Source: an uncultured bacterium
Lineage (GTDB): Bacteria > Muiribacteriota > CAYSPT01
Length of the DNA stretch: 64,000 nucleotides
Direction: 5' to 3'
NCBI GenBank assembly: GCA_964593455.1
Contig: CAZQHK010000016.1
Span: 18,339 to 82,338, forward strand
The position numbers and the translations under genes were made by a program. The notes beneath the pieces are model-generated. The model was not told the origin of the DNA. It did no database searches and saw only the letters and a list, made by a program, of their open reading frames with translations. How positions within the stretch are numbered: the stretch's first letter is position 1; every line of letters starts with the position of its first letter. Positions 1 through 63,676 of the stretch are shown piece by piece.

Positions 1-2
1 AA

Positions 3-713
3 GGGATAGATTGTTCTGGTATGATAACCATTTCACAGCGGTCCACGACCGTCAAGACAAGAATCCTGGCCGGTAGTCTTCACACTACCCGGCAGCAGGT
101 AATCAGGGTTGATAAAGAAGAAATGGGACCGCTTCTTAAACCGGTCAGTAAACAGCTGCTGGAGCGGTTTGAAAAACTCCTGCCCGGAGTTGACGCCGTT
201 CTTGTTTCGGATTACGGGTACGGGGTGGTTGGTGAAGAAATCAAGCAACGGGTCGGTGCCGGCCATGATCGGCCGGTGGTAGTTGATTCCCGGTACGATC
301 TCCTGTCTTTCAAGAGGATAACTATTGCTACCCCGAACGAGGAAGAAGTAATCGGTGTTCTCGACAAAACTATCGAGACGGCGACGGAACTGGAAGTCGC
401 CGGAAAAGAACTGCTTCACCGCCTGGACTGCCCGGCGTTGTTGGTTACCAGGGGTAGCCTGGGAATGTCTCTTTTTCAGCGGGATGGCTCTATCGTGCAT
501 ATTCCCGTATCGGGTACCGACGAGATAGCTGATGTCACGGGCGCCGGTGATACGGTTGCGGCGGTGATGGCTACCGCCTTGGCCGCCGGGGCCGATTTTC
601 TTACGGCCACTCATCTGGCTAATATTGCCGGTGGGATCGTAGTCATGAAGCGGGGAACAGGTATTGTGCATCCGGAAGAACTGATAGCAGTACTTGAAGA
701 GGACTCGCCGTGA
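3..713 (+). CDS. hldE: D-glycero-beta-D-manno-heptose-7-phosphate kinase (RfaE/HldE domain I, PfkB family); 5' end cut by the window edge
   Basis: Frame is open to the window start. The visible part carries the conserved TTVKTRI...VIRVD block of RfaE domain I and the C-terminal PfkB motif TGAGDT, and is paralogous to CDS 5194-6180. About 100 N-terminal residues are missing. Confidence 0.8.
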   Translation, partial: GIDCSGMITISQRSTTVKTRILAGSLHTTRQQVIRVDKEEMGPLLKPVSKQLLERFEKLLPGVDAVLVSDYGYGVVGEEIKQRVGAGHDRPVVVDSRYDLLSFKRITIATPNEEEVIGVLDKTIETATELEVAGKELLHRLDCPALLVTRGSLGMSLFQRDGSIVHIPVSGTDEIADVTGAGDTVAAVMATALAAGADFLTATHLANIAGGIVVMKRGTGIVHPEELIAVLEEDSP

Positions 714-1207
714 AGATTCACTCGGGTGCGCTGGTTGGTGAAACGGAGCTTCTCGAAGAGGTGCGGGAACGCCGTCGGCGGGGAGAAAGCATCGTGATTG
801 CCAACGGGTGTTTCGATATTCTTCACGTAGGCCATATCCGGTATTTGAAAGAAGCTGCCAAACTCGGAGATTTTCTGATCGTGGCTATCAATAGCGACAA
901 ATCGGTTTATGCTTTAAAAGGCCGGGGTAGGCCGGTGTTCGGAGAAAAAGCCCGCTCGGTGCTAATAAGCGCTCTGCCGGGAGTATCGGCGGTGGTGATC
1001 TTCAGCGATACTACTCTTGACCGGTTGATTGCTCATATAAAACCGGATATCCAGGCCAAGGGCACGGATTACACAGAGGAGTCTGTTCCGGAGCGGGAAA
1101 CGGTGCTTGCCTGCGGAGGAAAAGTAATGATATGCGGAGATCCAAAAGACCACTCGACTCGTTATGTGATAGACGATATTCTGAGCGGGAAGCAGGAAGA
1201 GAAATAG
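710..1207 (+). CDS. D-beta-D-heptose-1-phosphate adenylyltransferase (RfaE domain II, cytidylyltransferase-like), stand-alone
   Basis: GTG start overlaps the kinase stop (GTGA). Carries the nucleotidyltransferase motif NGCFDILHVGHIRYL. A 165-aa ORF is the typical size of RfaE domain II. Confidence 0.85.
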   Translation: MKIHSGALVGETELLEEVRERRRRGESIVIANGCFDILHVGHIRYLKEAAKLGDFLIVAINSDKSVYALKGRGRPVFGEKARSVLISALPGVSAVVIFSDTTLDRLIAHIKPDIQAKGTDYTEESVPERETVLACGGKVMICGDPKDHSTRYVIDDILSGKQEEK

Positions 1208-1239
1208 GCAAATTTGCTGATATTCGGGGAAGATTTTAA

Positions 1240-2121
1240 ATGAAAACGGTAGTGGTTACAGGGGCCGACCAGTTATTGGGATATCATCTGATGCGCGAAC
1301 TATCCCGGGACAACTATGTAGTGGGAATATCTTTGAAAGAACCGCCGGACCTACCGCCAGGCACTTTTCATCAGAAGTGCGCCATCACAAGCTATAGTAA
1401 GCTCGAATCGCTCCTTCAGGAAATTAAACCGTCCGTCGTCTTAAATGCGGCTGATTTTGATGATACGGAAAAGTGCGAAGACCAGCCCGGCAAAGCGTTC
1501 GATCTCAACGTGAAGAGCGTGTTTTATCTGGCCCGGCTTTCTTCGTTGTTGAGGTTCAAACTGGTCCACTTTTCCACAGATCTGGTGTTCGATGGCCATT
1601 CCGGTCCCTATGAGGAACGGGATGTCACCGGCCCGTTGAATTTCTACGGCGACACCAAGCTCCAAGCCGAGGATATTGTCCAGTATCTCGTCCAGGAATA
1701 CCTGCTGGTGAGAACGAGCATGGTGTATGGGGACGGCTCTACTACCCACCAGGACTTCATTCGTCGCCTCCTTAAGAAACTGGAATCGGGCGTGCCCACC
1801 GGCGAGGTGGTCGATCAGTGGAGCACTCCGACTTTTGCCGGTGATGTAGCTGAAATTACTACGGCTCTACTCGATCAGGACCTGGTCGGATTGTATCATG
1901 TGGCCGGGCCGGATTTTGTGAGTCGCAACTACTACGCTCACGCCATAGCTGATTTCTTTGGCTACGAGCGTCACTTGATTAAGTTGACGACCTCCCATTT
2001 TGTTGGAAAAAAAGCGACTATTCCCGAACGGGGGGGACTGCGTTCAATCAAGCTGAAAGCCGTACTCGGTTATGCGCCGAACGGGATCTCCGAAGGACTT
2101 CAGGCGTATGAGCGGCGTTGA
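1240..2121 (+). CDS. NAD(P)-dependent sugar-nucleotide reductase of the RmlD (dTDP-4-dehydrorhamnose reductase) family
   Basis: N-terminal Rossmann motif VVVTGADQLLG. STDLVFDG matches the RmlD signature STDYVFDG. Position between heptose-activation and heptosyltransferase genes is consistent with a keto-(deoxy)heptose reductase. Confidence 0.6.
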   Translation: MKTVVVTGADQLLGYHLMRELSRDNYVVGISLKEPPDLPPGTFHQKCAITSYSKLESLLQEIKPSVVLNAADFDDTEKCEDQPGKAFDLNVKSVFYLARLSSLLRFKLVHFSTDLVFDGHSGPYEERDVTGPLNFYGDTKLQAEDIVQYLVQEYLLVRTSMVYGDGSTTHQDFIRRLLKKLESGVPTGEVVDQWSTPTFAGDVAEITTALLDQDLVGLYHVAGPDFVSRNYYAHAIADFFGYERHLIKLTTSHFVGKKATIPERGGLRSIKLKAVLGYAPNGISEGLQAYERR

Positions 2122-3145
2122 AAAGGTACTGATAGTCCGTCTTTCTTCCATCGGTGATGTTATTCATGGACTGCCGGTAGTCAGAGCTCTTAAAGATGCT
2201 GTCCCGGGAATAAGAATTGACTGGATCGTGGAAAAACCATCGGCGGCGCTTTTAGAATCGGATGCCGACATCGACCGGGTATGGGTGCTTAAAAGGGGAA
2301 CGGGAAGTGCCGGCGAAATTATCCGCCAGCTACGTGCGGTGAGAAAACAACAGTATGATGTCTCCATCGATGTTCAGGGCCTCTTGAAGAGCGCGCTGGT
2401 CGCCAGGATATCCGGTGCCAGCCGGGTCGTGGGTTTCAGCCGGCCTACCGCCAGGGAGGGAAGCCACCTGTTCTACGACATTAAAGTTTGTGGGGAGCGG
2501 CCACTGCATGTGGTGGAAAAAAACCTGCGTCTCGTGTATGACGGGCTTCGAATTGACCTGCCAAAATTCAGATGGGGAGTTTTCACCGGTGATGAACCGG
2601 ACCAAAAGTTAAAAAGGTGGATTGATGAAACCTGCCCTGATAAAAGAAAACCTGTAGTTTTATTGAACCCGGGAGGAACCAGACCTAATAAAATGTGGGA
2701 AGGCGGACATTTTGCCCAACTGGCACGACTTTTGGCTCAAGACGGAGCCTGGGTGGTGGTGGCCTGGGGACCGGGAGAACAGGGCATTGCCGGGAAAATT
2801 GTCGAGGTTGCGAACTGTGACGGAGTAGTATCCGCGCCGCCTACCAATCTGCGTGAATTGGCCTCTTTGATCAAACAGGTGAACTGTGTTGTCTCGGGGG
2901 ATAGTGCCCCGCTTCATCTGGCCTCGGCGGTGGGTACTCCGGCGGTGGCTCTTTTCGGTTCTACCGACGCCGCCAGAAATGGCCCTTACCGGATACCATC
3001 ACGGACCATCCGCGGCGACTGCAGCAAGGGACCATGCTGGCAGCGTGAGTGTCCCGAAAGATATTGCATGAGACTTATCAGTTCCATCGGCGTACACCGG
3101 CATGTCCGGGCCGTGCTGGCTGTCGCTGGAGGCATAAGTCAATGA
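2108..3145 (+). CDS. Glycosyltransferase family 9 (LPS heptosyltransferase, WaaC/WaaF-like)
   Basis: N-terminus KVLIVRLSSIGDVIHGLP is the GT9 signature. ATG at 2108 overlaps the upstream gene end. The longer ORF from 2072 is probably over-extended. Confidence 0.8.
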   Translation: MSGVEKVLIVRLSSIGDVIHGLPVVRALKDAVPGIRIDWIVEKPSAALLESDADIDRVWVLKRGTGSAGEIIRQLRAVRKQQYDVSIDVQGLLKSALVARISGASRVVGFSRPTAREGSHLFYDIKVCGERPLHVVEKNLRLVYDGLRIDLPKFRWGVFTGDEPDQKLKRWIDETCPDKRKPVVLLNPGGTRPNKMWEGGHFAQLARLLAQDGAWVVVAWGPGEQGIAGKIVEVANCDGVVSAPPTNLRELASLIKQVNCVVSGDSAPLHLASAVGTPAVALFGSTDAARNGPYRIPSRTIRGDCSKGPCWQRECPERYCMRLISSIGVHRHVRAVLAVAGGISQ

Positions 3146-4227
3146 TGGATAAAAGGATTCAAAAACAAGCTGCCGGAGAAAAGCTTGCGAATATCCGGAA
3201 AATACTGATTGTCAGGCTCAGGTCCATCGGTGACATGATTCTGATTGGTCCGGCTGTGTTGGCTCTGAAGAAGACCTACCCCGGGGCTGAAATCACGGTG
3301 GTCTCAGAACCGCTGTGCGTCCCGGTGGTTGCCGGTAATCCTCTCTACGACCGGGTTATCGTCTTTAGTATACAGCGGATAAAAACACTCCCTTTTCGGC
3401 AAATGATAACCGAGTATGTAAAGTTCACCGCCTTCCTCCGGAACAAACAGTTTGATCTGACCATAGATTTGCATGGAGGACCCCGGGCGGCGGTCATCAC
3501 GCTGCTGTCCGGCAGCCGCTGCCGGCTCGGGTATGAATTGCGCGGTCGGCGGTGGGCTTACACTATCAGCCGCCGGGTGGAGTTGGGTAACTTAATGATT
3601 CGGGCCCATATAGAGCTCCTACGATCGGTAGGAACCAGTCCGTTGCACCCGCCCGAACAAGGTTTATTTTTTCCCATACCGGTTTCACACCGGACCTGGG
3701 CCGGAGACTTTCTTCGCAGCCTGCCACGAAATGATCTCCTGTTGGTTTTTCATTGTGGCGCCCGCTTCGACTATAAATGTTGGCCCGATACCCATTTCAT
3801 AACGTTAGGGAAAAAGCTGCATCTGTGGAGAAAAACCACAATTGTTTTAATCGGGGGAAAGGCCGATGAAGACAAGTCTCGCGAGATAGCCCGGGCTATC
3901 GGCGTGAACGCCGTCAACCTGGCCGGTGAACTGCCGTTGGAGAAAACGGCGGCCCTCATCGAGCAGGCCGATCTCATGGTTTGTAACGATTCCGGCCCCA
4001 TGCATATCGCGGAAGCTTTGCGCATACCCATTGTCAGTTTATTCGGTCCCACGGATCCGAATATATGGGCGCCGGTAGGTAAGCGAAACCGAGTCATTCA
4101 ATGCGATGATGTAAATCCTGCCTCCACCGGCCGTGATGGTGGAATAGCAGAGATACCGGTTGAAACGGTCTATCAAGTTTGTCTGGCAATGATCAGTGAG
4201 AAGGATGGTGAGGTAACCAATGGATAG
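3142..4227 (+). CDS. Glycosyltransferase family 9 (second LPS heptosyltransferase)
   Basis: KILIVRLRSIGDMILIGP GT9 motif. ATGATG start overlaps the stop of the previous GT9 gene (ATGA coupling). C-terminal NDSGPMHIAEAL block is typical of GT9. Confidence 0.8.
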   Translation: MMDKRIQKQAAGEKLANIRKILIVRLRSIGDMILIGPAVLALKKTYPGAEITVVSEPLCVPVVAGNPLYDRVIVFSIQRIKTLPFRQMITEYVKFTAFLRNKQFDLTIDLHGGPRAAVITLLSGSRCRLGYELRGRRWAYTISRRVELGNLMIRAHIELLRSVGTSPLHPPEQGLFFPIPVSHRTWAGDFLRSLPRNDLLLVFHCGARFDYKCWPDTHFITLGKKLHLWRKTTIVLIGGKADEDKSREIARAIGVNAVNLAGELPLEKTAALIEQADLMVCNDSGPMHIAEALRIPIVSLFGPTDPNIWAPVGKRNRVIQCDDVNPASTGRDGGIAEIPVETVYQVCLAMISEKDGEVTNG

Positions 4228-5176
4228 CAAGAAAATTATACCGGTTGATTTTTCCCGTCTAAAACGTGGACCACTCGGCGATAAAAAGCACAAAGTTACT
4301 CTGGACCGGCAAGCCGGTAAGCCGGTTGCGGGTGCCACCCTCGAAGAATTCTGCCGGGCTCTGCCGGGTGTGCTGGCAGCGGACGCTTTTCAAATGGTGG
4401 TTAAAGCTCTGGTAGAAGCTACCAGAAACGGACGGGATATCGTACTGGCATGCGGTGCTCACGTTATCAAGTGCGGCCTCTCTCCTCTTCTGAACGAACT
4501 CATGCAGCGGAAACTCGTTTCTCTGATTGCGCTAAACGGCGCCGGAGCAATTCATGATGCCGAGTTGGCAATGGTGGGCAGTACGTCGGAAGATGTCATG
4601 ACCGTGGTCAAGGATGGAAGTTTCGGTATGGCCCGGGAGACCGGCGCATTCTACGGCCGGGCGGTTGAAATGGGAACGACCATGCAGATGGGGCTTGGTG
4701 AGGCTCTCGGAATGACATTGATCCAGGATCAAGCTCCGTATTGTTCCGACAGCGTTCTCGCCCAGGCGGTTGCTACCGGTACTCCGATTACAGTACACTG
4801 TGCCATCGGCACGGACACGGTCCATACCTTTCCGGAGGTGGATCCGAGCGGGCTTGGAGCGCTTACTCATTATGATTTCCGGCTTTTTTGCGGTTGTGTA
4901 AACGGTTTTGAACCCGGAACCGTATATTTGAATGTAGGTTCGGCCGTGATCTTGCCCGAAGTGTTCCTGAAAGCGGTCGGCGTAGCTAAAAACATGGGAC
5001 GGTCACTCGAAGGGCTAACCCGGGTGAACATGGATATGATTCAGCATTACCGGCCACGGGAGAACGTACTGGGCCGGATTAATCCCGAAGAGAACCACCG
5101 ATGTTACGCCTTAACGGGACATCATGAAATAATGCTCCCTCTCCTGGTGTGGAGCTGGCTGAATGGTATTTCATAA
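4220..5176 (+). CDS. Conserved protein with remote deoxyhypusine-synthase-like (DS family) motifs; function unknown
   Basis: ATG overlaps the GT9 stop. The segment LVSLIALNGAGAIHDAELAM resembles the DHS block VDVLVTTAGGVEEDLIK. CGAHVIKCGLSPLLNEL resembles the DHS N-terminal GxxSSGxRE region. Assignment is by motif only. Confidence 0.3.
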   Translation: MDSKKIIPVDFSRLKRGPLGDKKHKVTLDRQAGKPVAGATLEEFCRALPGVLAADAFQMVVKALVEATRNGRDIVLACGAHVIKCGLSPLLNELMQRKLVSLIALNGAGAIHDAELAMVGSTSEDVMTVVKDGSFGMARETGAFYGRAVEMGTTMQMGLGEALGMTLIQDQAPYCSDSVLAQAVATGTPITVHCAIGTDTVHTFPEVDPSGLGALTHYDFRLFCGCVNGFEPGTVYLNVGSAVILPEVFLKAVGVAKNMGRSLEGLTRVNMDMIQHYRPRENVLGRINPEENHRCYALTGHHEIMLPLLVWSWLNGIS

Positions 5177-5193
5177 ATAGAGGTGTGGTAGAG

Positions 5194-6180
5194 ATGACTA
5201 ACACGGACAAGAGCAGGCTGATCCGATTGATCGAGAAGTTTTCCCGCTGCCGGATTCTGGTGGTGGGAGATGTCATGGTAGACGAATATATCTGGGGACG
5301 GGTTACCCGGATTTCTCCGGAAGCTCCTGTTCCGGTAGTGGAGCGGCGGGGCTGTTCACTCGTTCCCGGAGGAGCCGGGAATGTCGTGAGAACACTCATT
5401 TCACTGGGTGCGAACGTGACTTTGATTGGTGAAATAGGCCAGGACTCTTCAGGTGAATGGCTGCGAAGTCATCTGCAAAGCGAGGGAGTCGGAGTGAATG
5501 GCCTGGTCGAAGTTCCCGGTCGTGAAACTACGGTAAAAACCAGAATAATAGCCCATAAACAGCAAGTGGTCAGGGTTGACAGCGAAAACAAATCCCCTAT
5601 CGATGGACCGGTTATTGAAGAATTGCTCCGGAACGTTGAAAATGAATTGGACAGCGTTAACGTCGTTATCCTCTCCGATTACGCCAAAGGACTTCTTCAC
5701 AAGAAAACCATACCACTCATCGTGGAGAAGTGTCTGGAGAAGGGAGTTATGGTGGCGGTAGACCCTGCCGTCCACCATGCTGACCTGTACCGGGGAGTAA
5801 CCGTGCTGACTCCGAATCACCACGAGGCGGCGCTCATGGCCGGCCGGGAGATGGAGACCGAGGATGATGTCGAAGATGTCGGCACCAGCCTGGCCGGGAG
5901 GTTGGGTTGCCGGTACCTGGTCATCACCCGTGGGGAAGATGGTATGACGGTATTGGAAGCGGAGCAAAAGGCCATCGAACATATTCCGGCGGTGGCCCGT
6001 GAAGTGTTCGACGTGACCGGGGCGGGTGATACCGTGATTGGGACCCTGGCTCTCGGTTTGGCCGCCGGAGGCGGTATACTCGAGGCCGCGATCATATCCA
6101 ACTACGCGGCGGGTGTGGTGGTGGCCAAGTTCGGTACAGCCACGGTAACCGTCGATGAGCTGAAAGAAGTAATTGGCTAG
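5194..6180 (+). CDS. hldE: D-glycero-beta-D-manno-heptose-7-phosphate kinase (RfaE domain I), second copy
   Basis: ATG at 5194 is preceded by AGAGG. Carries the ILVVGDVMVDEYIWG N-terminus, TTVKTRII...VVRVD block and PfkB C-terminal motif TGAGDTVIG. The ORF call from 5149 is probably over-extended. Confidence 0.85.
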   Translation: MTNTDKSRLIRLIEKFSRCRILVVGDVMVDEYIWGRVTRISPEAPVPVVERRGCSLVPGGAGNVVRTLISLGANVTLIGEIGQDSSGEWLRSHLQSEGVGVNGLVEVPGRETTVKTRIIAHKQQVVRVDSENKSPIDGPVIEELLRNVENELDSVNVVILSDYAKGLLHKKTIPLIVEKCLEKGVMVAVDPAVHHADLYRGVTVLTPNHHEAALMAGREMETEDDVEDVGTSLAGRLGCRYLVITRGEDGMTVLEAEQKAIEHIPAVAREVFDVTGAGDTVIGTLALGLAAGGGILEAAIISNYAAGVVVAKFGTATVTVDELKEVIG

Positions 6181-6189
6181 GAGGCTGGA

Positions 6190-7428
6190 GTGAATAAACG
6201 ACTCCTTTCGGTGGCTCAAGCCGCCGCCAGAACCAGGGACCTGCAGGCAGCCGGTAAACGGGTGGTTTTTACCAACGGCTGTTTCGATCTTATGCATCCC
6301 GGTCACGTGAAGACGCTGGCCCAGGCCCGGGCGGAAGGCGATATACTGATCGTCGGTCTGAACAGCGATTCTTCCGTCCTCGGGCTCAAAGGTCCGAGCC
6401 GGCCACTGCTCGACCAGGAAGCCAGGGCGTCTGTTTTGCTGGCGCTCCGATTTGTTGATTTTGTCGTGTTGTTTAGCGAGGACACGCCGGCCGACCTGAT
6501 CGCACAGATAAAACCCGATGTACTCGTCAAGGGAGGGGACTGGGGTGAAAACGAGATCGTAGGCCGGGCAATCGTGGAACGAATGGGAGGCCGGGTGGTC
6601 AGGATACGTCCCGTACCCGGATATTCCACCACCGCTATCATTGATAAAGCAAAACACCCACGGCTTATGGGAGAAACCGGGGAGCGGGACCGTCCCACGG
6701 TCATCGGCGTCATCCCTGCCAGGTACGGTTCCACCAGGTTTCCGGGCAAACCGCTGGCCCCTATTGCCGGTATACCGATGGTGGAACGAGTGAGATGCCG
6801 TGCCGTCTCGGCCGGCCTGCTCGATCGGGTGGTAGTGGCCACGGATGATGAACGTATTGTTAAGGTGATTGAAGCGGCCGGCGGGGAAGCCATGATGACC
6901 GATCCTATGGCTCCATCGGGAACCGATCGGGTCATCGAAATCTCTGGCCGGATAAAGGGAGACATCTTTGTCAATATCCAGGGAGATGAGCCCCTGCTTC
7001 CACCCTCAGCCGTGGACGCGGCTGTTGAGATTGCCATCAATTCCACCGAAGACACGGTGGTTACCCTGGCTTCGGCTTCGGCTGACCGGAGTGATTTTAA
7101 CAATCCGGATGTCGTTAAAGTAGTCTGCCGGGAGGATGGGCAGGCACTTTACTTTTCCCGGGCTCCGATTCCTTTTCCCCGGGAGGGGGAGGGAGATTCT
7201 TTTCTCAAACACGTGGGATTGTATGTGTTCTCCAGGAAGGTGCTGCAAACGATAACCAATCTCCCTGTATCGGTGTTGGAATCGTGTGAAAAACTGGAAC
7301 AACTCCGGTGGATGGCGGGTGGTATTCCGGTGCGGGTAGTGCCGGTTACATGGGATACACATGCAGTTGACCGTCCGGAAGACATCGCCCGAGTCGAAGC
7401 TGAACTGGCTGAACGGGGAGACCGATAA
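6190..7428 (+). CDS. kdsB: Bifunctional fusion: heptose-1-phosphate adenylyltransferase (RfaE domain II) plus CMP-Kdo synthetase (KdsB)
   Basis: Residues 1-160 carry NGCFDLMHPGHVKTL and the RfaE-II fold and are paralogous to CDS 710-1207. Residues ~170-412 start with VIGVIPARYGSTRFPGKPL, the KdsB signature. It is a single uninterrupted ORF. Confidence 0.8.
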   Translation: MNKRLLSVAQAAARTRDLQAAGKRVVFTNGCFDLMHPGHVKTLAQARAEGDILIVGLNSDSSVLGLKGPSRPLLDQEARASVLLALRFVDFVVLFSEDTPADLIAQIKPDVLVKGGDWGENEIVGRAIVERMGGRVVRIRPVPGYSTTAIIDKAKHPRLMGETGERDRPTVIGVIPARYGSTRFPGKPLAPIAGIPMVERVRCRAVSAGLLDRVVVATDDERIVKVIEAAGGEAMMTDPMAPSGTDRVIEISGRIKGDIFVNIQGDEPLLPPSAVDAAVEIAINSTEDTVVTLASASADRSDFNNPDVVKVVCREDGQALYFSRAPIPFPREGEGDSFLKHVGLYVFSRKVLQTITNLPVSVLESCEKLEQLRWMAGGIPVRVVPVTWDTHAVDRPEDIARVEAELAERGDR

Positions 7429-7429
7429 C

Positions 7430-9034
7430 GTGGCCAAGTATATTTTTGTGACCGGCGGCGTGCTCTCGGCTTTGGGTAAAGGCGTTACAGCCGCTTCGCT
7501 CGGACGGCTGCTGGCCGACCGGAAATTAAAAGTTTCGCTGCAGAAACTCGATCCTTACCTCAATGTTGACTGCGGGACCATGAATCCTTATCAGCACGGA
7601 GAAGTGTTCGTGACAGCGGACGGCGCCGAGACAGATCTGGATATCGGACACTATGAGCGGTTCCTGGACCATGAGCTCAGCCGTGGCTGCAATGTCACTT
7701 CGGGACAGGTCTACCAGTCGATCCTTACCAGGGAGCGACGAGGAGATTATCTGGGGGAAACCGTACAGGTAATTCCGCATGTTACGGACCGGATCAAAGA
7801 GTGCATAAAAAGTCAGGCCGGGGGGAAAGACCTGGATGTGCTGATTGTGGAAGTCGGTGGCACCGTGGGTGACATCGAAAGTCTTCCCTTCCTGGAAGCG
7901 GCCCGGGAGATGAAAACAGATTTGGGACCGGATAATGTGCTCTACATTCACATTACCTGGGTGCCATACCTGAAGACCGCGGGCGAGCTGAAAACCAAAC
8001 CGACCCAGCACAGTGTCAACGAACTCAGGCGCATCGGCATACAACCGGATGTGGTGGTTTGCCGCGCCCAGCGCCGTCTGCCGGCGGAAGTTAAACAGAA
8101 GATATCGCTTTTCTGTGGTGTGCCGGCCGAAGCGGTGGTGGAAGCCCGTGATGTCAACTCGGTTTACGAGGTCCCGCTGCTACTCGAAAAAGAAGGCCTG
8201 GCTCGCCTGGTTACCGCAAAACTTGGTTTTTCAAAGGAAGGACCGGAACTGTCTTCCTGGCAGGAGATCGTAAAACGGATAAAGCATCTTGCCAAAACCA
8301 GGGAACGGGTCGTTAATGTCGGCATACTTGGAAAATATGTGACGCTGCCGGACTCGTATATCAGTGTCAGTGAAGCCATCCGTCACGCCGCCTGGAAATG
8401 CGGCGCCTGGCCGCAAATGTCGTACATTTCTTCAGAAACCTTACTGGAAGAAGGCGCCGAATCAGTCCTTTCCGCTTTGGATGCCGTGGTCGTTCCCGGG
8501 GGCTTCGGCGAACGCGGTATCGATGGCATGGTGGAAGGAATCAGGTATCTTCGCGAGAAACACCGTCCGTTTTTGGGAATATGCCTGGGGATGCAGTGTG
8601 CGGTGATAGAGGTTGCCAGAAACGTGCTGGGATGGACCGGTGCCAACAGCACGGAATTCGATCCGGACACGGCTTACCCGGTCATCGACCTTGCCTCCTG
8701 TCAGTTGAATATTGATCACAAAGGCGGTACCATGCGGCTGGGAGCGTATCCGTGCCGGATCACAAAAGATTCACTGGTATTTTCCTTGTACAGGAAAAAG
8801 TTGGTTCAGGAACGGCATCGACATCGTTATGAGTTCAACGAAAATTGCGAAGAACAATTGAAAAAAGCCGGCCTGGCGGTGAGCGGCCGTTGCCCGGAAG
8901 GCGGGTACGTGGAATGCGTGGAATTCAAAAAACATCCTTATTTTGTCGGAGTGCAGTATCACCCTGAATTCCTGAGCCGTCCCGATCGTCCCCATCCGCT
9001 GTTTCTGGGGCTTATCGAAGCGGCAGTTAGATGA
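7430..9034 (+). CDS. pyrG: CTP synthase
   Basis: GTG start immediately after the kdsB stop. AKYIFVTGGVLSALGKG N-terminus and GICLGMQ glutamine amidotransferase active-site motif. Standard length. Confidence 0.95.
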   Translation: MAKYIFVTGGVLSALGKGVTAASLGRLLADRKLKVSLQKLDPYLNVDCGTMNPYQHGEVFVTADGAETDLDIGHYERFLDHELSRGCNVTSGQVYQSILTRERRGDYLGETVQVIPHVTDRIKECIKSQAGGKDLDVLIVEVGGTVGDIESLPFLEAAREMKTDLGPDNVLYIHITWVPYLKTAGELKTKPTQHSVNELRRIGIQPDVVVCRAQRRLPAEVKQKISLFCGVPAEAVVEARDVNSVYEVPLLLEKEGLARLVTAKLGFSKEGPELSSWQEIVKRIKHLAKTRERVVNVGILGKYVTLPDSYISVSEAIRHAAWKCGAWPQMSYISSETLLEEGAESVLSALDAVVVPGGFGERGIDGMVEGIRYLREKHRPFLGICLGMQCAVIEVARNVLGWTGANSTEFDPDTAYPVIDLASCQLNIDHKGGTMRLGAYPCRITKDSLVFSLYRKKLVQERHRHRYEFNENCEEQLKKAGLAVSGRCPEGGYVECVEFKKHPYFVGVQYHPEFLSRPDRPHPLFLGLIEAAVR

Positions 9035-9084
9035 GGTACAATGAACACATGGCAAATTATGCCCTGGACTGAAGGTGAAATTCC

Positions 9085-9954
9085 TTGATAAACGTGAATA
9101 CGCCCGGCCCGGGCCCGGCCGGTATGGGTCCGAAACGGGTAGATATAACAGACGATATTTCGATAGGCCCGGGACTTTCACTGGTGCTTATAGCGGGACC
9201 CTGTGTTATCGAGTCGGGTGATCACTTGCTTGATATCGCGGCCAAGATGGCCGAGATCAGCCGTTCCTGCGGGATTCCGTATATCCTGAAAACATCATTT
9301 GATAAAGCCAACAGGACCTCGGGAAAATCGTATCGCGGGCCTGGCCTGGAAGAGGGTTTGCGTATCATGGCCGAGGTCAAAGAACGAACCGGCCTGCCGA
9401 TCCTGCTCGATGTTCACGAGCGGGACCAGATAGCTCCGGCGGCTGAAGTTGCCGAGATATTGCAGATCCCGGCTTTTCTCTGCCGTCAGACTGATTTTGT
9501 TCAGGACGTCGCCCGCTCGGGCCGGGTGGTAAATATTAAAAAAGGCCAGTTTCTTGCTCCCTGGGATCTCCGGCACGTGGTTGAAAAGATTGAGGCTGTG
9601 GGAAACACCAGAATTCTTCTTACCGAACGGGGAACTAGTTTTGGATATAACAACCTGGTGGTGGATTTCAGCGCGCTGCCGGTTATGGCTTCGCTCGGGT
9701 ATCCGGTAGTGTTTGATGCCACCCACAGCGTCCAGCGTCCCGGAGGGGCCGGTAACGCTACCGGCGGCCGCAGGCAATACGTCCGGCACCTGGCCCGGGC
9801 CGCGGTGGCAGTCGGCGTTGACTCCCTTTTTCTGGAAGTACATGACAGCCCGGATGATGCTCCATGTGATGGGCAGAATATGCTGTCGCTTGAAGAGATG
9901 CCGCTTTTGCTTGACGAGGTACTGTCGATCAGAAAAGCTTTGAATGGTAGGTAG
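9085..9954 (+). CDS. kdsA: 3-deoxy-8-phosphooctulonate synthase (KDO8P synthase)
   Basis: LIAGPCVIES and KTSFDKANRTS motifs, DAHP/KDO8P synthase family. TTG start at 9085; an alternative ATG start at 9124. Confidence 0.9.
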   Translation: MINVNTPGPGPAGMGPKRVDITDDISIGPGLSLVLIAGPCVIESGDHLLDIAAKMAEISRSCGIPYILKTSFDKANRTSGKSYRGPGLEEGLRIMAEVKERTGLPILLDVHERDQIAPAAEVAEILQIPAFLCRQTDFVQDVARSGRVVNIKKGQFLAPWDLRHVVEKIEAVGNTRILLTERGTSFGYNNLVVDFSALPVMASLGYPVVFDATHSVQRPGGAGNATGGRRQYVRHLARAAVAVGVDSLFLEVHDSPDDAPCDGQNMLSLEEMPLLLDEVLSIRKALNGR

Positions 9955-11278
9955 TGTGGAATTCTTTCGAAAAATCCTGGACACCCTCGGGGATGAGATT
10001 GTAGCACTTAAAGACGGTTCGACCGTCCAATGGGCGAACGAGACGTTTTGCAGCAACTGGAAAGTTACCCTCGGGGATTTGAGAAAACGACCGGTCTCTG
10101 AAGTACTGCCCGGTCCACGACTGGCGCGGGCACTTTTAAAAGGCCGATCGTTTAAAGCGCGTCTTTACACCGTGGGTGATGATTCTGCTCACGGCACAGC
10201 CCGCTACCGAGCCACGTATCTTCCGGCTATCTTGCCGGTCAGTTCCGGGACCTGGGATATACTGGTTCTCACTCCCATCAGCGGCAGTCCTTCCAGGGGT
10301 GTGGGCACGCACGCCAGGTTGACCTTCAGCGATATAATTGGCGTGAGCAAGGGTATAAAACAGGCCATCAGGACAGGAAAACTGGCGACCCGCCGGAGCA
10401 CCACGGTTCTCATTAAAGGAGAGAGCGGAGTTGGCAAGGATGTTTTTGCCCAGGCCATTCACAACGAGAGCGGCAGCAACCGCCCTTTCGTGGCCGTCAA
10501 CTGTGCCGCTCTCCCGCGTGAACTGATGGAAAGCGAATTGTTTGGCTACATGGGTGGATCGTTTACCGGTGCGGCCCCGGGCGGGCGGCCAGGAAAGTTC
10601 GAATTAGCCGACGGGGGAACTATCTTTCTGGATGAAATAGGCGAACTTCCTCTTTCCCTCCAACCAAAACTGTTGCGGGTATTACAGACCAAAGAAATCA
10701 CCAGGATAGGCGCTGAATGTTCGAAACCAGTGCAGGTCAAAGTCATTGCGGCCACAAAACAGGATCTCGAAGAGAAGGTCAGGGAGGGGTCATTCCGGGA
10801 CGATCTTTTTTACCGCCTTAATGTTATTACCATGCGTATTCCTCCGCTCAGAGAACGAGGCGATGATGTCCCGCTGCTGGTAAAACATTTTCTCTCGAAG
10901 ATCTGTCCTTCCATCGGGATACCGTGCCCGGAAGTGGACGATCCGGTCATGGAAGCATTGACCAGGTGCATGTGGCCGGGAAACGTCCGGCAACTGGAAA
11001 ACGTAATCGAGCGCGAACTTTTGTATCTGCCGGCAGGTGAACGGATCTTGAAGCACATACCCGATGAAGTTCTCCGGCCTGACAGTTCCATTGATCAGTG
11101 CGGTGAAGGTTCAGTCCGGGTCTTCCCGGGGGATGACTTGTCCCTGCGCGCCAAGGAAAAACAGATGATTATCCAGGCGATTGAGAGAGCCAGGGGGAAT
11201 ACCGCTGCCGCCTCCCGCATGCTCGGCATCTCACGGGCAACGCTCTATCGAAAAATGGAACGCTACGGCATAGAGTGA
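9944..11278 (+). CDS. Sigma-54-dependent transcriptional activator (bacterial enhancer-binding protein) with N-terminal sensor domain and C-terminal Fis-type HTH
   Basis: AAA+ sigma54-interaction domain with Walker A GESGVGKD. GSFTGA is a variant of the GAFTGA loop. FYRLNV motif. C-terminal RATLYRKMERYGI helix-turn-helix. Confidence 0.85.
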   Translation: MVGSVEFFRKILDTLGDEIVALKDGSTVQWANETFCSNWKVTLGDLRKRPVSEVLPGPRLARALLKGRSFKARLYTVGDDSAHGTARYRATYLPAILPVSSGTWDILVLTPISGSPSRGVGTHARLTFSDIIGVSKGIKQAIRTGKLATRRSTTVLIKGESGVGKDVFAQAIHNESGSNRPFVAVNCAALPRELMESELFGYMGGSFTGAAPGGRPGKFELADGGTIFLDEIGELPLSLQPKLLRVLQTKEITRIGAECSKPVQVKVIAATKQDLEEKVREGSFRDDLFYRLNVITMRIPPLRERGDDVPLLVKHFLSKICPSIGIPCPEVDDPVMEALTRCMWPGNVRQLENVIERELLYLPAGERILKHIPDEVLRPDSSIDQCGEGSVRVFPGDDLSLRAKEKQMIIQAIERARGNTAAASRMLGISRATLYRKMERYGIE

Positions 11279-12035: not shown

Positions 12036-12521
12036 ATGATGCGACAGATACAAGATCACCAGCTGAGTACAAGAGAATCAGAGAAGGGGCTGGCAGCAAT
12101 ACTTACTGTGGCTGAAGCTTTGAAAAAAGAAAATGCAAAAGACAAACAACTTCAGAAACGGACTAAATCGAGTAAAAGTAAAATGTTTCAAGGTATGCAG
12201 GAAGAGATGACGTTTTCCGAGAAAATGAAATACCTGGACCAGCTTCCGGAACACAAGATGGCTCAGGGAAGTAAAGGCGATCGATATTTTGATATCGGCA
12301 CCTACCGGCCGTGGGGTATGGAGAGTATCAGTTTTCTGGTTGATATGATGCGTGAAAACGCGACTCCGATGGAAATAGCTTTTTTGAGCAGAAGATCATA
12401 CTACGATGTGCTGGCTATGCACCGTATTTACAAGTGGGTTATAAGGGAAGATTCTCAGGAGCGCCGTTTGCGTTTTAAGAAGAGGTTAAAAAAAGTAGTG
12501 GAAGCGGAAGAGGAGAGGTAG
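12036..12521 (+). CDS. Hypothetical protein inserted between mraZ and rsmH; possible small DNA-binding protein
   Basis: Strong RBS GAAGGAGGA ahead of ATGATG. 161 aa, Lys/Glu-rich N-terminus. C-terminal TPMEIAFLSRRSYYDVLAMHRI segment resembles a sigma-region-4-like HTH. No homolog recognised. Confidence 0.5.
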   Translation: MMRQIQDHQLSTRESEKGLAAILTVAEALKKENAKDKQLQKRTKSSKSKMFQGMQEEMTFSEKMKYLDQLPEHKMAQGSKGDRYFDIGTYRPWGMESISFLVDMMRENATPMEIAFLSRRSYYDVLAMHRIYKWVIREDSQERRLRFKKRLKKVVEAEEER

Positions 12522-33587: not shown

Positions 33588-34868
33588 TCACAACGCGGAA
33601 CAGAGAAGGGTGCCTTGTTTGTATCCGGTAATCCGTACCCGTAAAAGTTTCCCCATGTCTGCCGGTGTGTTCCGGTTCGTCAGTTTGCCCGTGAGGTAGG
33701 TTCCGGTAAGAAGGCTGGCCGGAGGTCCTTCATTGATCACCACGGCTTCGTGGATGGTCCCCGAGGCTTTTTTCAATACATGGTCTATTTTTTCCCCTTC
33801 GAGGTCGTGCAGTATACGGCTTCTGTCTTTCTTTACCGCCGGTAGGACGTCGTCGTTAAGCGCCGCGGCCTGCGTTCCCGGCCGGGGGGAGTAACGGAAT
33901 ACGTGGAGATATGTGAACGGCAGTTCCTCGACCAGGCGCCGGGTGTTCTCAAACTCCTGTTCCGTTTCTCCGGGAAAACCGACCATGATGTCGGTCCCCA
34001 GCCCGAAATCGTCGAACCTCTCCTCGATCAGGGACACCGTTTTTTTATAGCTGTCCACGGTATACTCGCGGTTCATTCTCCGCAATACCCTATCGTCACC
34101 GCTTTGGAGCGGCAGGTGAAAGTGCGGGCAAACGATGTCCGAGGCGGCCATGGTGTCGATCAGGTCGGCGGTAATCCATTGCGGTTCGAGGGAGCTCAGC
34201 CTGATCCGGAAAACTCCTTCCAACTCGTGTATCGATTCGATGAGCCTGGTGAGTGAACCGGGCGGGCTTAGATCAGAACCGTAGCTGGCCAGGTTGACGC
34301 CGGCCAGCACGATTTCCTCGAATCCGGCTCGTACCAGGTACTGAAGCCGGCTGAGAACCAGGGAAACGGGCATACTGGCAGGTGTGCCCCGTATGTGCCT
34401 GACAATGCAGTAGGCGCAGGTGCCGGAACATCCGTCTTGAATCTTCAGGATACCGCGTGAGCGCATCCTGAGACCGTCGGAAGAAGTTGCCTCGGTAACG
34501 GTGTGATTCCGGGTTGACTCGTTCACACTGCCGGTGATGTCGAGCAGGTCGAGGATTGCCTCCGGATTGTGGCCTGGGACGATGTCATCGATTCCCGTGG
34601 AGGTCTTAAGCTCGGTCAGGTAGGCGGTGGGATAACAGCCGCACAGGATAATCCGGGCCCGGGAGTTGTCCCGGGCGAGTTTCCTTACCCGCTGCCGCAC
34701 CTTTTGCGCGCCGCGTCCGGTGACACAACAGCAGTAGATGATAATGATATCCGCCTGGTCAAATGTCAGGACCCTGGTCACTTCGCCGGTGTCGACCAGT
34801 ATCCGAATGGTTTCAAAGGCGTCGCTTTGACTGACCTTGCATCCGAAATTAACGGCGATGGCTTTCAT
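33588..34868 (-). CDS. MiaB-family radical SAM methylthiotransferase (MtaB-like), with MTTase N-terminal domain and C-terminal TRAM
   Basis: N-terminal IAVNFGCKVSQSD. Radical SAM cluster motif CSGTCAYC. C-terminal TRAM-like segment. Translationally coupled to rimO (ATGA overlap). Confidence 0.7.
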   Translation of the reverse strand: MKAIAVNFGCKVSQSDAFETIRILVDTGEVTRVLTFDQADIIIIYCCCVTGRGAQKVRQRVRKLARDNSRARIILCGCYPTAYLTELKTSTGIDDIVPGHNPEAILDLLDITGSVNESTRNHTVTEATSSDGLRMRSRGILKIQDGCSGTCAYCIVRHIRGTPASMPVSLVLSRLQYLVRAGFEEIVLAGVNLASYGSDLSPPGSLTRLIESIHELEGVFRIRLSSLEPQWITADLIDTMAASDIVCPHFHLPLQSGDDRVLRRMNREYTVDSYKKTVSLIEERFDDFGLGTDIMVGFPGETEQEFENTRRLVEELPFTYLHVFRYSPRPGTQAAALNDDVLPAVKKDRSRILHDLEGEKIDHVLKKASGTIHEAVVINEGPPASLLTGTYLTGKLTNRNTPADMGKLLRVRITGYKQGTLLCSAL

Positions 34869-36232
34869 GGGGAAACGGGTACGTCTCCCGGTACGGGAGC
34901 AGCCACCAGATCAACGGCGTCGGCATTGATGTATTTCACGGTGAGCCACGATCCCGGCTGTCCTTCCCAGGAGTCGATGTACACTACTCCGTCGATCTCG
35001 GGAGCTTGTGAATAGCTTCTGGCCGTCCAGGCCGGAATCTCAGCTGAAAAATTTTCTACCAGGACGGTTTCCACGGTACCGATGCGCTTTTCGTTTTTTT
35101 CCCGGGCGATGTGTTCTTGAATACCACAGACTATATTGAGCCGTTCCTGTTTGATCTCTTCCGGGACCTGGTTGAGAAACGAGGCGGCCGGGGTATCCTC
35201 TTCCGGGGAGTATGTGAAAAATCCCGCATGATCGAGCCGGTACTTTTTAAGAAATTCGCACAGTTCGTTGAAGGACCGGTCCGTTTCTCCCGGGAAACCG
35301 ATAATAAAAGTGGATCGTAAAACCACTGAGTCAAGGCGGTTTCTCAGGCCGGTGATAATCATTTCCAGGCGCGAGCGTGTCACTTTGCGGTCCATGGCTT
35401 TGAGCAGGTCATCGTCCACGTGTTGGAAGGGAATATCGATGTAGTTACAGATTTTCTTTTCATTCCCGATGGTGTCGATCAACCGTTCGGTGATATGGGC
35501 TGGATGGGCGTAGAGAAGGCGTAACCAGCCGATCCCGTCTATTGTTGCCAACCGGGTGAGCAACCCGGCCAGGGCATCCGGTTCTCCCCGGTCCCGGCCG
35601 TAGGCGGTGATGTCCTGGGCCACGAGTACCAGCTCTTTTACTCCCTGTTCGGCCAGGCAGCGGGCTTCTGTCATGATGTCTCCGGAAGGTCTGCTTCTCA
35701 AATAACCGCGGATTGAAGGAATGAGACAGTACGAGCAGCAATTGTCGCAACCCTCCGAGAGTTTAAGGTACGCGGTCGGGGATGGGGTGGACAGAATCCG
35801 ATGTCCCTGGGTCGTGGGGGCCAGGGTAACGGGACGTTTCACGGGCAGTATTGACTCTGGCCGGTTTCCGGGCCGGTTGTCGATAGCCGCCCCGATGGTG
35901 TGGAAATGATCGATCCCTATCACCGCGTCCACCTCCGGGATACTGCCCCGGAGAGAGTCACTGTACCGTTGCACCAGGCAACCCGCCACTATCAGTCGTT
36001 TCAGCCGTCCGGAGGCCTTGTGCTCGGCGGCTTCCAGTATGACGTCAATTGATTCCTGGGCGGCGTCTCCGATGAACGCACAGGTGTTGATTACCACCCC
36101 TTCGGCTTCCTCGTATGTGTTAACCAGCCGGTGTTTGCCCTGGCGGATGAGATAGGCCAGGTACTCAGAATCAACCGTGTTCTTGGGACAGCCGAGAGTT
36201 ATCAGCAGAATCTTCAAAAAATCACCCTGCAA
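34865..36232 (-). CDS. rimO: Ribosomal protein S12 methylthiotransferase
   Basis: ILLITLGCPKNTVDSE N-terminus typical of RimO. Radical SAM CDNCCSYC. TRAM C-terminus. Confidence 0.8.
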   Translation of the reverse strand: MQGDFLKILLITLGCPKNTVDSEYLAYLIRQGKHRLVNTYEEAEGVVINTCAFIGDAAQESIDVILEAAEHKASGRLKRLIVAGCLVQRYSDSLRGSIPEVDAVIGIDHFHTIGAAIDNRPGNRPESILPVKRPVTLAPTTQGHRILSTPSPTAYLKLSEGCDNCCSYCLIPSIRGYLRSRPSGDIMTEARCLAEQGVKELVLVAQDITAYGRDRGEPDALAGLLTRLATIDGIGWLRLLYAHPAHITERLIDTIGNEKKICNYIDIPFQHVDDDLLKAMDRKVTRSRLEMIITGLRNRLDSVVLRSTFIIGFPGETDRSFNELCEFLKKYRLDHAGFFTYSPEEDTPAASFLNQVPEEIKQERLNIVCGIQEHIAREKNEKRIGTVETVLVENFSAEIPAWTARSYSQAPEIDGVVYIDSWEGQPGSWLTVKYINADAVDLVAAPVPGDVPVSP

Positions 36233-36402: not shown

Positions 36403-36430
36403 GGAACAAAAGTATGGTAATTAATCGTTA
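36403..36430 (+). promoter_or_regulatory. Candidate ECF-type autoregulatory promoter (GGAAC -35, CGTT -10) ahead of the ECF sigma gene
   Basis: GGAACA at 36403-36408 and CGTTA at 36426-36430, about 18 nt apart. Its position favours the downstream ATG 36516 as the sigma-factor start. Confidence 0.25.
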
Positions 36431-36515
36431 TCAAGAATGGAGCCAGGAAGTGACTGCTCGGTCGGCTGATACCAGGCTTGACAAGAAGACGATAAAGCAA
36501 AAGAAGGTACGGTTT

Positions 36516-37049
36516 ATGGAAGAGATCATGCCTCACTTGAACTCTCTGTATCGGTCCGCTTATTTTATGGTAGACAACATGTTTGACTCCGAGGACCTGG
36601 TGCAGGATACGCTGCTCGCATCGTTCAGGTCTTTTCACACTTATCGTTCGGGCACCAATGCCCGAGCCTGGTTGATGAAGATCATGAGAAACCTCTTTAT
36701 CGACTGGATGCGCCGCAAACAGCGTGCCGTGAAGACCGTGACTTTGCCGGAGGCGTTTGAAAACAATATTTCCTACGAGGAGATGTTGAAACAGGGCCTG
36801 GAGGACCCGGAGTTCCAGTCTCTCGTGAATGTGCTTCCTGAAAACCTGGAAAAAGCGCTCAAGCAGCTTCCGGAAGATTTCCGCACGGCTTTGACCTTGT
36901 GCGACATCGAAGGGATGACCTATCTGGAGATAGCGGAAGTGATGGATTGTCCTTTGGGAACGGTGCGCTCACGGATATTCCGTGCCAGAAAAATAGTTCG
37001 AGTTTTGATTAAAAAAAAATCTGCGCAACAGAAAGGTAGAAGCAGATGA
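36516..37049 (+). CDS. ECF-subfamily RNA polymerase sigma factor
   Basis: Region 2 (LYRSAYFMV...DLVQDTLL...AWLMKIMRNLFIDWMRR) and region 4 (ALTLCDIEGMTYLEIAEVMDCPLGTVRSRIFRARK). The ORF call from 36414 would add ~34 non-conserved residues. Confidence 0.8.
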   Translation: MEEIMPHLNSLYRSAYFMVDNMFDSEDLVQDTLLASFRSFHTYRSGTNARAWLMKIMRNLFIDWMRRKQRAVKTVTLPEAFENNISYEEMLKQGLEDPEFQSLVNVLPENLEKALKQLPEDFRTALTLCDIEGMTYLEIAEVMDCPLGTVRSRIFRARKIVRVLIKKKSAQQKGRSR

Positions 37050-48655: not shown

Positions 48656-48760
48656 AATCTCCAACCTCACTTTCTACACCTCTTCAGAGCACTTCTGGTA
48701 TAATATCAAGTCTGGCCAATAATTGCGGGAATCGGCAGGAAGAACGGTAACGGTGGCGAC

Positions 48761-50341: not shown

Positions 50342-50356
50342 CAGGAGAATACTTCT

Positions 50357-51205: not shown

Positions 51206-51208
51206 TTC

Positions 51209-52132: not shown

Positions 52133-52152
52133 TGAGGAAGGTTTAAACTATC

Positions 52153-52815: not shown

Positions 52816-52826
52816 GGGAAAACTCC

Positions 52827-53897: not shown

Positions 53898-53912
53898 TTT
53901 GGAGGACCCAGA

Positions 53913-63674: not shown

Positions 63675-63676
63675 TC

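Follow-up and report, generated by a model that had tools for sequence, protein, structure and literature searches.

Two distinct heptose-activation modules and a recurrent HldC–KdsB fusion in a probable lipopolysaccharide inner-core gene cluster of an uncultured bacterium

Gene content of the locus

Within a 64,000-nucleotide (nt) stretch of DNA from an uncultured Muiribacteriota bacterium (contig CAZQHK010000016.1, positions 18,339 to 82,338; hereafter the window), we examined a cluster of ten co-directional + strand genes, packed tightly or overlapping, across positions 1–9954. The cluster holds two modules, each composed of a kinase and a nucleotidyltransferase of the types that activate heptose for lipopolysaccharide (LPS), and the second nucleotidyltransferase is fused to KdsB, the enzyme that activates 3-deoxy-D-manno-octulosonate (Kdo). 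The features named in an original prediction, made from the DNA letters of this stretch, were all present on the + strand, at the positions it had given or a few bases off. The window DNA is identical to a stretch of a 100.9-kb marine metagenome scaffold (L001), on which window position 1 corresponds to position 3812. The genes and features of the cluster, and the gene that follows it, are:

3–713, +: hldA1 (kinase 1), a PfkB-family, heptose-7-phosphate-kinase-like gene; the 3′ 236 codons of a gene for 332 amino acids (aa), cut by the window edge
710–1207, +: hldC1 (AT1), a free-standing HldC-like nucleotidyltransferase of 165 aa, of the subfamily here called AT1-type; PF01467
1240–2121, +: divergent RmlD-family short-chain dehydrogenase/reductase (SDR), between hldC1 and the waaC-like gene; PF04321 at 184.8 bits
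2108–3145, +: waaC-like GT9 glycosyltransferase, heptosyltransferase I-like; TIGR02193 at 191.9 bits (cutoff 185.3), start as called on L001
3142–4227, +: second GT9 glycosyltransferase, heptosyltransferase II/III-like; PF01075 at 134.6 bits, under all equivalog cutoffs
4220–5176, +: GSU2086-family protein, 318 aa; NF052581 at 351.9 bits
5194–6180, +: hldA2 (kinase 2), a heptose-7-phosphate kinase of canonical type, 328 aa; TIGR02198 at 372.5 bits (cutoff 345)
6178–6192, +: hldA2/fusion junction; a TAG stop overlapping a Shine-Dalgarno sequence (TAGGAGG), then a GTG start
6190–7428, +: hldC2::kdsB fusion, 412 aa; HldC domain at nt 6235–6654, linker at about 6655–6696, KdsB domain at 6697–7416
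7367–9034, +: pyrG (CTP synthase); NF003792 at 793.7 bits, start as called on L001
9085–9954, +: kdsA (Kdo-8-phosphate synthase); NF003543 at 398.9 bits
9944–11278, +: sigma-54-dependent transcriptional activator (AAA+ and HTH_8 domains), between kdsA and mraZ

The complete kinase 1 gene, of 332 aa, lies at L001:3526–4524, and its stop codon is overlapped by the GTG start of hldC1 by 4 nt (GTGA). Homology suggests that the true start of pyrG may be the GTG at 7430. The waaC-like GT9 and the second GT9 are 30% and 28% identical to Escherichia coli WaaC and WaaF, respectively. These two GT9 genes and the GSU2086-family gene, all between the two modules, had gone without mention in the original prediction, as had a GmhB-like phosphatase gene just upstream of the window. 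This phosphatase, of the haloacid dehalogenase (HAD) family, is accompanied upstream of the window on L001 by genes for a GT4, a third GT9, a GT2, a methyltransferase and a GT1. A scan for promoter-like and terminator-like sites found them no commoner than in shuffled sequence, and neither Rfam nor tRNA scans of the full window returned anything. Three long antisense open reading frames (ORFs; 5449–6657, 6303–7103 and 33–671, all on the − strand) had no Pfam match and were treated as spurious.

Comparison of the two modules

Both kinases belong to PF00294 and carry the PGGAGN and DVTGAGDT motifs, each is followed by an HldC-type gene, and both transferases match PF01467, with the HxGH motif reading HVGH in AT1 and HPGH in AT2 (the HldC half of the fusion). 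The proposed presence of two HldA/HldC-type modules was thus borne out, while the suggested comparison with HddA and HddC proved beside the point, as those enzymes have different folds; a Pfam scan of the ten genes in 1–9954 found neither a GHMP-family kinase nor a PF00483-type nucleotidyltransferase, the families to which HddA and HddC belong.

The two modules are only distantly related to each other: kinase 1 shares 39% identity with kinase 2, and AT1 42% with AT2. One relative (L087/L088), with a fusion protein 59% identical to that of the window, shows the whole cluster with the genes in the same order, and each of its copies is 65–75% identical to the orthologue in the window and ~38–41% identical to the paralogue. 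This indicates that the duplication or acquisition predates the split of the two lineages, and that both copies have been kept since; accordingly, a check for recent tandem duplication showed the modules not to be recent. The difference extends to curated profiles. Module 2 passes the equivalog cutoffs for both its kinase (TIGR02198, 372.5 bits, cutoff 345) and its transferase (TIGR02199, 191.7 bits, cutoff 181.5), while kinase 1 scores 198 bits as the window fragment and 306.1 bits as the full gene against TIGR02198. The same split is seen in the relative, where the L087 orthologues of kinase 2 and kinase 1 reach 368 and 287 bits, respectively, and the module 1 transferases remain below the TIGR02199 cutoff in both lineages (159.7 bits in the window, 156.2 bits in the relative). 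In a neighbor-joining tree, kinase 1 and the kinases beside other AT1-type genes were separated from all others, including kinase 2 and E. coli HldE, with 99% bootstrap support. Judged by these comparisons, the two modules are ancient and distinct subfamilies, each belonging to a different widespread operon type. NCBI gives AT1 and kinase 1 generic names only.

The HldC–KdsB fusion

The second nucleotidyltransferase had been described as fused in frame to a complete KdsB, and both the domain scores and the continuous ORF agree with this. Residues 16–155 of the 412-aa protein match domain II of rfaE (TIGR02199, 191.7 bits), with the motifs KGGDW and GYSTT, and residues 170–409 match KdsB above the curated cutoffs (NF003952, 278.8 bits, cutoff 193; TIGR00466, 176.4 bits, cutoff 155.2), with the P-loop (PAR..R.PGK), QGDEP and EQLR motifs all present; no break interrupts the ORF across the junction. 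The architecture is also recurrent: PF01467 and PF02348 were both found in all of the best 120 homologue clusters (40–98% identity, 367–487 aa), so that the count of clusters with this architecture is at least 120, some of them named Abditibacteriales or Armatimonadetes. Among 35 aligned homologues, the catalytic motifs of both halves were invariant (HxGH, KGGDW, STT, PAR..R.PGK, QGDEP and EQLR, the invariant core of the HldC motifs being HxGH, KGGD and the S of STT), and the length of the linker varied. A profile scan of genome contigs with the fusion alignment recovered at least two full-length fusions (L007 and L008) among the matches listed. The fusion is therefore genuine and recurrent, and public databases already list such proteins, under single-function names.

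That an assembly error, a frameshift or a missed stop produced the fusion, or that the modules arose by recent tandem duplication, can be given virtually no weight. The identical fusion ORF was called on 12 contigs, of which the six listed come from six separate metagenome samples or assemblies; the variable linkers among the homologous clusters speak against an artefact as well, and paralogues that are 39–42% identical and fall in different clades speak against a recent duplication. No support for either was found, the only related point being that hldA2 and the fusion gene share one reading frame, with a single TAG between them, and that E. coli HldE accordingly aligns as one tblastn segment across 5230–6663. 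As this TAG overlaps a Shine-Dalgarno sequence and precedes a GTG start, hldA2 and the fusion are separate genes and not a broken HldE. In line with this, HldE is defined by both domains lying in one polypeptide, both pairs here are split, and all scores against NF008454 are below its cutoff of 521. A single base change at this TAG would yield a three-domain kinase–HldC–KdsB protein.

The original prediction further proposed that the fusion physically couples heptose and Kdo activation. In an AlphaFold2 model (predicted template modeling score 0.62, mean predicted local distance difference test (pLDDT) score 92), the two domains are each predicted with pLDDT > 90, and linker residues 160–165 with pLDDT < 50, which suggests a beads-on-a-string arrangement and co-expression rather than channelling. 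With no intermediate common to the Kdo and heptose pathways, and with domains that appear to be joined by a flexible linker, the fusion is unlikely to act as a substrate channel. The proposed coupling therefore holds in the sense of co-translation and not beyond it: most plausibly, the fusion secures stoichiometric 1:1 co-expression of two inner-core sugar-nucleotide synthases. Going by its family assignment, the product of the adjacent pyrG would supply the CTP used by KdsB. In many other phyla, including three contigs from Victivallales, Kiritimatiellae and Omnitrophota (L054, L058 and L059), an HldA-type kinase gene lies directly before a plain kdsB with no adenylyltransferase domain nearby, and the adjacency of kinase and kdsB thus seems older or more general than the fusion itself.

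Module 1 and the AT1-type operon

AT1 scores 159.7 bits against TIGR02199 and matches Burkholderia pseudomallei HldC (5X9Q) in the PDB, and the only PDB match of kinase 1 at E ≤ 1e-10 is B. cenocepacia HldA (4E84). The signature residues of AT1 (IANGCFD, AKGTDYT..SVPER and GDPKDHSTR) are those of a large, distinct HldC subfamily in which (L/F)ANGxFD, AKG(T/S/P)DYT..(S/T)VPE and GDPKxHS(T/S)x replace the canonical KGGD(Y/W) and GxSTT. In a HMMER search with AT1 of 1.84 billion representatives, this signature was carried by ~70 of the best 150, most of them monodomain proteins and some of them fused to a GmhB-like HAD (P0323, P0328 and P0374), a GT9 (P0309) or KdsB (P0381).

We then scanned metagenomes with an alignment of AT1-type proteins, and annotated the resulting 80 loci (613 kb in total) by tblastn; the ratios given here count only loci with enough flank on the relevant side. 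A kinase gene lay directly upstream of the AT1-type gene in 47 of 49 loci, and these kinases were always matched better by kinase 1 than by kinase 2 (mean of 241 vs. 155 bits). A WaaC-like GT9 gene was directly downstream in 59 of 61 loci, its best match always being the waaC-like GT9 of the window. Farther upstream, a GmhB-like HAD preceded the kinase in 20/39 loci and WaaA was found in 20/28, while genes of the GSU2086 family and for KdsB, KdsA and GmhA were detected in none of the 80. Given this conserved synteny of kinase, GT9, GmhB and WaaA, together with the separate clade of kinase 1, module 1 is a member of a widespread and conserved inner-core operon, (waaA..waaF)-gmhB-hldA-hldC-waaC, and not an exotic side route. 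The idea of the free-standing module as a dedicated path to a modified or deoxy heptose was thus not supported, as the module belongs to this common gmhB-hldA-hldC-waaC type. The GmhB-like HAD upstream of the window has the motifs DRDGT, SNQSG, GDSWSD and a C-x-HH...CxCRKP zinc loop, with scores of 150.6 bits against NF006506 (the beta type and its best NCBIfam match; cutoff 178) and 118.7 bits against TIGR00213 (cutoff 149.6). Compared with the conserved operon, the sole oddity of module 1 is the SDR gene between hldC and waaC.

Module 2 and the GSU2086-family protein

Kinase 2 is closest to the HldA proteins of Nitrospirota and 'Deltaproteobacteria' (44–47% identity), and its best solved match is again HldA 4E84 (209 bits). 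The triad of a GSU2086-family gene, a kinase and an HldC::KdsB fusion recurs in L007 (Armatimonadota), L008 (Abditibacteriaceae) and L099, and in the latter two it is preceded by a GT9 gene. The GSU2086-family gene is directly upstream of the kinase and fusion genes at L007:1206–2024, L008:7583–8503, L099:5871–6812 and, in the close relative, L087:7430–8386. In that relative, a gmhA gene (SIS family) also lies between kinase 2 and the fusion (L087:9382–10008); homology searches found no gmhA between 6180 and 6190 of the window, nor anywhere in the cluster, the 64-kb window or the upstream flank. A weak GmhA-like match at 37168–37233 (E = 0.02) is out of frame with the ORFs that span it (36414–37049 and 37046–37876) and was treated as a chance match.

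The GSU2086 family is very large, with >7,900 homologues at roughly 45–50% identity across phyla, nearly all annotated as hypothetical, and the window protein has no Pfam match above threshold. Its AlphaFold2 model (pLDDT 90.8) was best matched by Foldseek to deoxyhypusine synthase (DHS; 7CMC, E = 2.6e-10, template modeling score ~0.6, 14% identity), followed by the C-terminal domains of LOR/SDH and ArgZ. The DHS family profile (PF01916) stays sub-threshold, at 13.8 bits for the window protein and with weak matches in 30 of 40 homologues, and matches to ArgZ-like families are sub-threshold as well. On the evidence of the model, the protein falls in the DHS fold superfamily but outside the DHS family. 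Members of the GSU2086 family accompany hldA or hldE across phyla. In Geobacter sulfurreducens, GSU2086 itself lies between hldE and gmhA, and hldE, GSU2086 and gmhA have matching defects in electrode transposon sequencing (−3.1, −3.2 and −3.7, respectively; PMC5585712). The family member thus stands beside a heptose kinase gene there as it does here, although Geobacter has a fused HldE and an adjacent gmhA, whereas the window cluster has no gmhA and L087 has it between kinase 2 and the fusion. Other contexts include a position after lpxK (Scalindua), a GT2/GT4/flippase cluster (in a metagenome-assembled genome of Actinomycetota) and an unrelated context. Overall, we regard the GSU2086-family protein as a candidate for an NAD-dependent enzyme in the metabolism of envelope glycans, and probably of heptose.

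The RmlD-family reductase

The SDR scores 185 bits against the RmlD equivalog TIGR01214 (cutoff 224), and it retains the fold as well as the STD and YxxxK catalytic motifs. Its orthologues are confined to this lineage (69% and 59% identity), and the glycine-rich cofactor motif reads TGADQLLG in the window vs. TGGTGLLG in the 59%-identity orthologue. A homologue search returned 15 proteins, of which the nearest outside the lineage (34% identity) is encoded beside RmlC and is uninformative on a role in heptose metabolism. Likewise, the position of the gene is specific to this lineage: it is absent there in the 59 loci with a GT9 directly after the AT1-type gene. The ends of the SDR gene overlap both of its neighbors in L087, which suggests translational coupling.

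The original prediction took the two parallel routes beside this reductase to suggest that one serves a modified, possibly deoxy, heptose. Synthesis of a deoxy-heptose requires a 4,6-dehydratase, and the known 6-deoxy-heptose routes use GDP-alpha-heptose made by HddA/HddC-type enzymes. No 4,6-dehydratase was found in the window or its flanks by Pfam or by tblastn with RmlB, the only trace of PF16363 in the cluster being a weak secondary match on the SDR itself, and tblastn found no RmlA, RmlB or RmlC in the window, L091, L087, L100 or L101. For contrast, hldA and kdsB of a Nitrospirota locus (L015) flank a complete rmlACDB set. With the essential dehydratase, RmlA/B/C and the GDP-heptose enzymes HddA and HddC all missing from the window and flanks, the deoxy-heptose proposal is left without support.

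Proposed pathway and alternative explanations

Taken together, this region probably forms the core of an LPS inner-core supply-and-transfer operon, which would have arisen when two evolutionarily distinct ADP-heptose modules, each standard in other bacteria, were placed side by side. From its sequence, the cluster reads as two 'standard' ADP-heptose operon types joined head to tail, i.e., a gmhB-hldA1-hldC1-[SDR]-waaC module and a GSU2086-hldA2-hldC2::kdsB-pyrG-kdsA module. Gene content, families and synteny are observed, and from these we infer the substrates and products of all cluster enzymes, and an identical or almost identical nucleotide-heptose from the two modules. GmhA, presumably encoded elsewhere in the genome, would convert sedoheptulose-7-phosphate to heptose-7-phosphate, which HldA1 or HldA2 would phosphorylate to beta-heptose-1,7-bisphosphate; the GmhB-like HAD would then strip the 7-phosphate, and HldC1 or the HldC half of the fusion would form ADP-D,D-heptose. 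CMP-Kdo would come in parallel from KdsA and the KdsB half of the fusion, with CTP from PyrG, and the three GT9 enzymes would assemble the heptose region on Kdo–lipid A. We see an even chance that both modules make the same product, an operon merger having left them redundant or differently regulated, and rate it as rather doubtful that their products are chemically distinct.

Several observations weigh against this picture of two ordinary ADP-heptose modules. None of the module 1 proteins reaches its NCBIfam equivalog cutoff (kinase, 306 < 345; transferase, 159.7 < 181.5; GmhB, 150.6 < 178), and AT1-type proteins differ from canonical HldC at near-invariant positions (TP to TL, KGGD to KGTD and GxSTT to DHSTR), so that a different sugar-phosphate or nucleotide specificity is possible. 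Both modules have been kept in two lineages whose orthologous cluster proteins are 55–75% identical, which makes pure redundancy less likely. The SDR gene is inserted exactly between hldC1 and waaC, where it suggests an extra chemical step. In addition, homology searches found no GmhA, HldD or WaaA in the window or flanks, and the pathway as drawn thus relies on unseen genes.

These observations can be read in several other ways. Module 2 might supply ordinary core ADP-heptose while module 1, with the RmlD-like reductase, makes a modified (e.g., deoxy) heptose nucleotide for another glycan. The sub-cutoff scores of module 1, the SDR with its intact STD and YxxxK motifs between hldC1 and a GT9 gene (and overlapping both neighbors in L087), and the retention of both modules in two related lineages would all fit such a division of labor. 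However, module 1 without the SDR is a standard inner-core operon found beside WaaC, WaaF and WaaA in dozens of loci, and the absence of a 4,6-dehydratase, of RmlA/B/C within ~85 kb and of HddA/HddC-type GDP-heptose enzymes among the cluster genes makes this quite unlikely. Alternatively, the SDR could be a non-orthologous replacement of HldD that converts ADP-D,D-heptose to ADP-L,D-heptose for the WaaC-like transferase, in which case the modules would differ in the epimer delivered to each GT9. In the window, L091 and L087, tblastn gave no match to E. coli HldD at E ≤ 1e-3, the protein belongs to the extended SDRs and retains the catalytic Tyr and Lys, and the gene is placed where E. coli has rfaD (hldD), i.e., directly before heptosyltransferase genes as in rfaD-waaF-waaC. 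We nonetheless judge it unlikely: no member of the RmlD family is known to us as a 6-epimerase, the glycine-rich motif of the SDR in the window departs from that of the orthologue, HldD could be encoded elsewhere in the genome, and for a missing NAD-dependent step the GSU2086-family protein is just as unproven a candidate.

In a broader, and likewise improbable, reading, the cluster would hold two undescribed nucleotide-heptose steps: the GSU2086-family protein would act as an NAD-dependent enzyme, perhaps a non-orthologous 6-epimerase or a new tailoring enzyme, and the two subfamilies, with the SDR, would provide nucleotide-heptoses that differ in epimer, modification or nucleotide for different GT9 enzymes. 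If true, this would imply a physiological role for heptose-nucleotide diversity. Very unlikely, finally, is that the two transferases differ in their nucleotide, with AT1-type enzymes forming CDP-, UDP- or GDP-heptose and two pools thus serving different transferases. Characterized systems with WaaC-like GT9 enzymes use ADP-heptose, and AT1-type genes adjoin WaaC-like GT9 genes, which counts against a change of nucleotide, even if the AT1-type GDPKDHST(T/R/S) does stand in place of the (F/L)xxGxSTT motif region. Relaxed use of NTPs has been documented for heptose nucleotidyltransferases, with the physiological role of CDP- and UDP-heptose still an open question, and an STTR5 motif marks the nucleotide-promiscuous enzymes (PMC11573728, PMC11461863). 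The Arg at position 5 of this motif is absent from both enzymes here, being His in AT1 and Tyr in AT2, and the motif accordingly failed as a discriminator between them.

Comparison with known systems

Split HldA and HldC genes are well known, and clusters of split HldA/HldC, KdsB and GT9 genes are textbook material, while the HldC–KdsB fusion is uncharacterized and widespread. The kinase and transferase families here are those of E. coli HldE, which is 43% identical across kinase 2 and AT2, but the kinase and transferase are encoded by separate genes, the transferase is fused to KdsB, and a second, divergent pair is present. The Burkholderia HldA and HldC proteins (4E84 and 5X9Q) are closer in organization, being monodomain and separately encoded, and 4E84 is the best solved match of both kinases. 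Neither of them is fused to KdsB, unlike AT2, and Burkholderia HldC has an Arg-containing STT motif, FEHDRSTT, vs. DHSTR in AT1 and GYSTT in AT2. The KdsB half of the fusion keeps the motifs of E. coli KdsB and differs from it by the N-terminal HldC domain of 155 residues. The common kdsB-pyrG-kdsA neighborhood keeps this order in L015 and L016; L010 and L083 have kdsB-pyrG. As in the rfaD-waaF-waaC operon of E. coli, an SDR gene stands right before heptosyltransferase genes, but the SDR here is of the RmlD family and has no detectable similarity to HldD.

The three architectures of heptose nucleotidyltransferases described in the part of Tang et al. that we consulted are monodomain, kinase–nucleotidyltransferase didomain and isomerase–kinase–nucleotidyltransferase tridomain (PMC11573728); AT1 falls in the monodomain class, and a nucleotidyltransferase–KdsB fusion is not among these three types. 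Literature searches returned no description of an HldC–KdsB fusion, nor of a DHS-like protein in a heptose pathway. Further HldC-type fusions were observed in this study, namely GmhB–HldC, HldC–GT9, HldC–GmhA and AT1-type HldC–KdsB (P0309, P0323, P0328, P0374, P0381, P0414, P0416 and P0443). Separately, C-terminal extensions are present on the HldC-type proteins P0314, P0316, P0317, P0321 and P0327.

The cluster overturns no current understanding. The recurrent HldC–KdsB fusion offers evidence of the Rosetta-stone type for co-regulated supplies of inner-core sugar nucleotides, and the operon context of the AT1-type HldC and its partner kinase clade identifies these as the enzymes that activate heptose in many environmental bacteria, for which annotation could be improved. 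Both subfamilies side by side in one genome represent a natural system for comparing specificity, and the very widespread GSU2086 family, now tied to the heptose pathway, becomes testable. ADP-heptose and CMP-Kdo synthesis are targets for antibiotic adjuvants, and nucleotide-heptoses are innate-immune agonists sensed by ALPK1.

Other features of the window

The 59%-identity relative also retains the sigma-54-dependent activator gene, which in the window (9944–11278) overlaps the end of kdsA. Downstream of this gene, at the head of the dcw cluster, an ORF of 161 aa without a Pfam family (12036–12521, +) lies between mraZ and rsmH, and is also conserved in this relative (L087:16011–16493). A possible cluster for sugar or small-molecule tailoring at ~47600–55540 (+) includes genes for an APH-family kinase, a 526-aa protein with no Pfam match, a split transketolase (N and C halves), a methyltransferase, a radical SAM enzyme, a DegT-type aminotransferase and a DUF6016 protein. 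Two pairs of TldD/PmbA-family genes are found within 7 kb, at 56932–59695 (−) and 62232–64000 (+), the second of which runs off the window end; between them are two genes with no Pfam match, encoding 362 and 366 aa. Finally, adjacent paralogues of MiaB/RimO-like radical SAM methylthiotransferases are encoded at 33588–36232 (−), both with UPF0004 and Radical_SAM domains and one with a TRAM domain.

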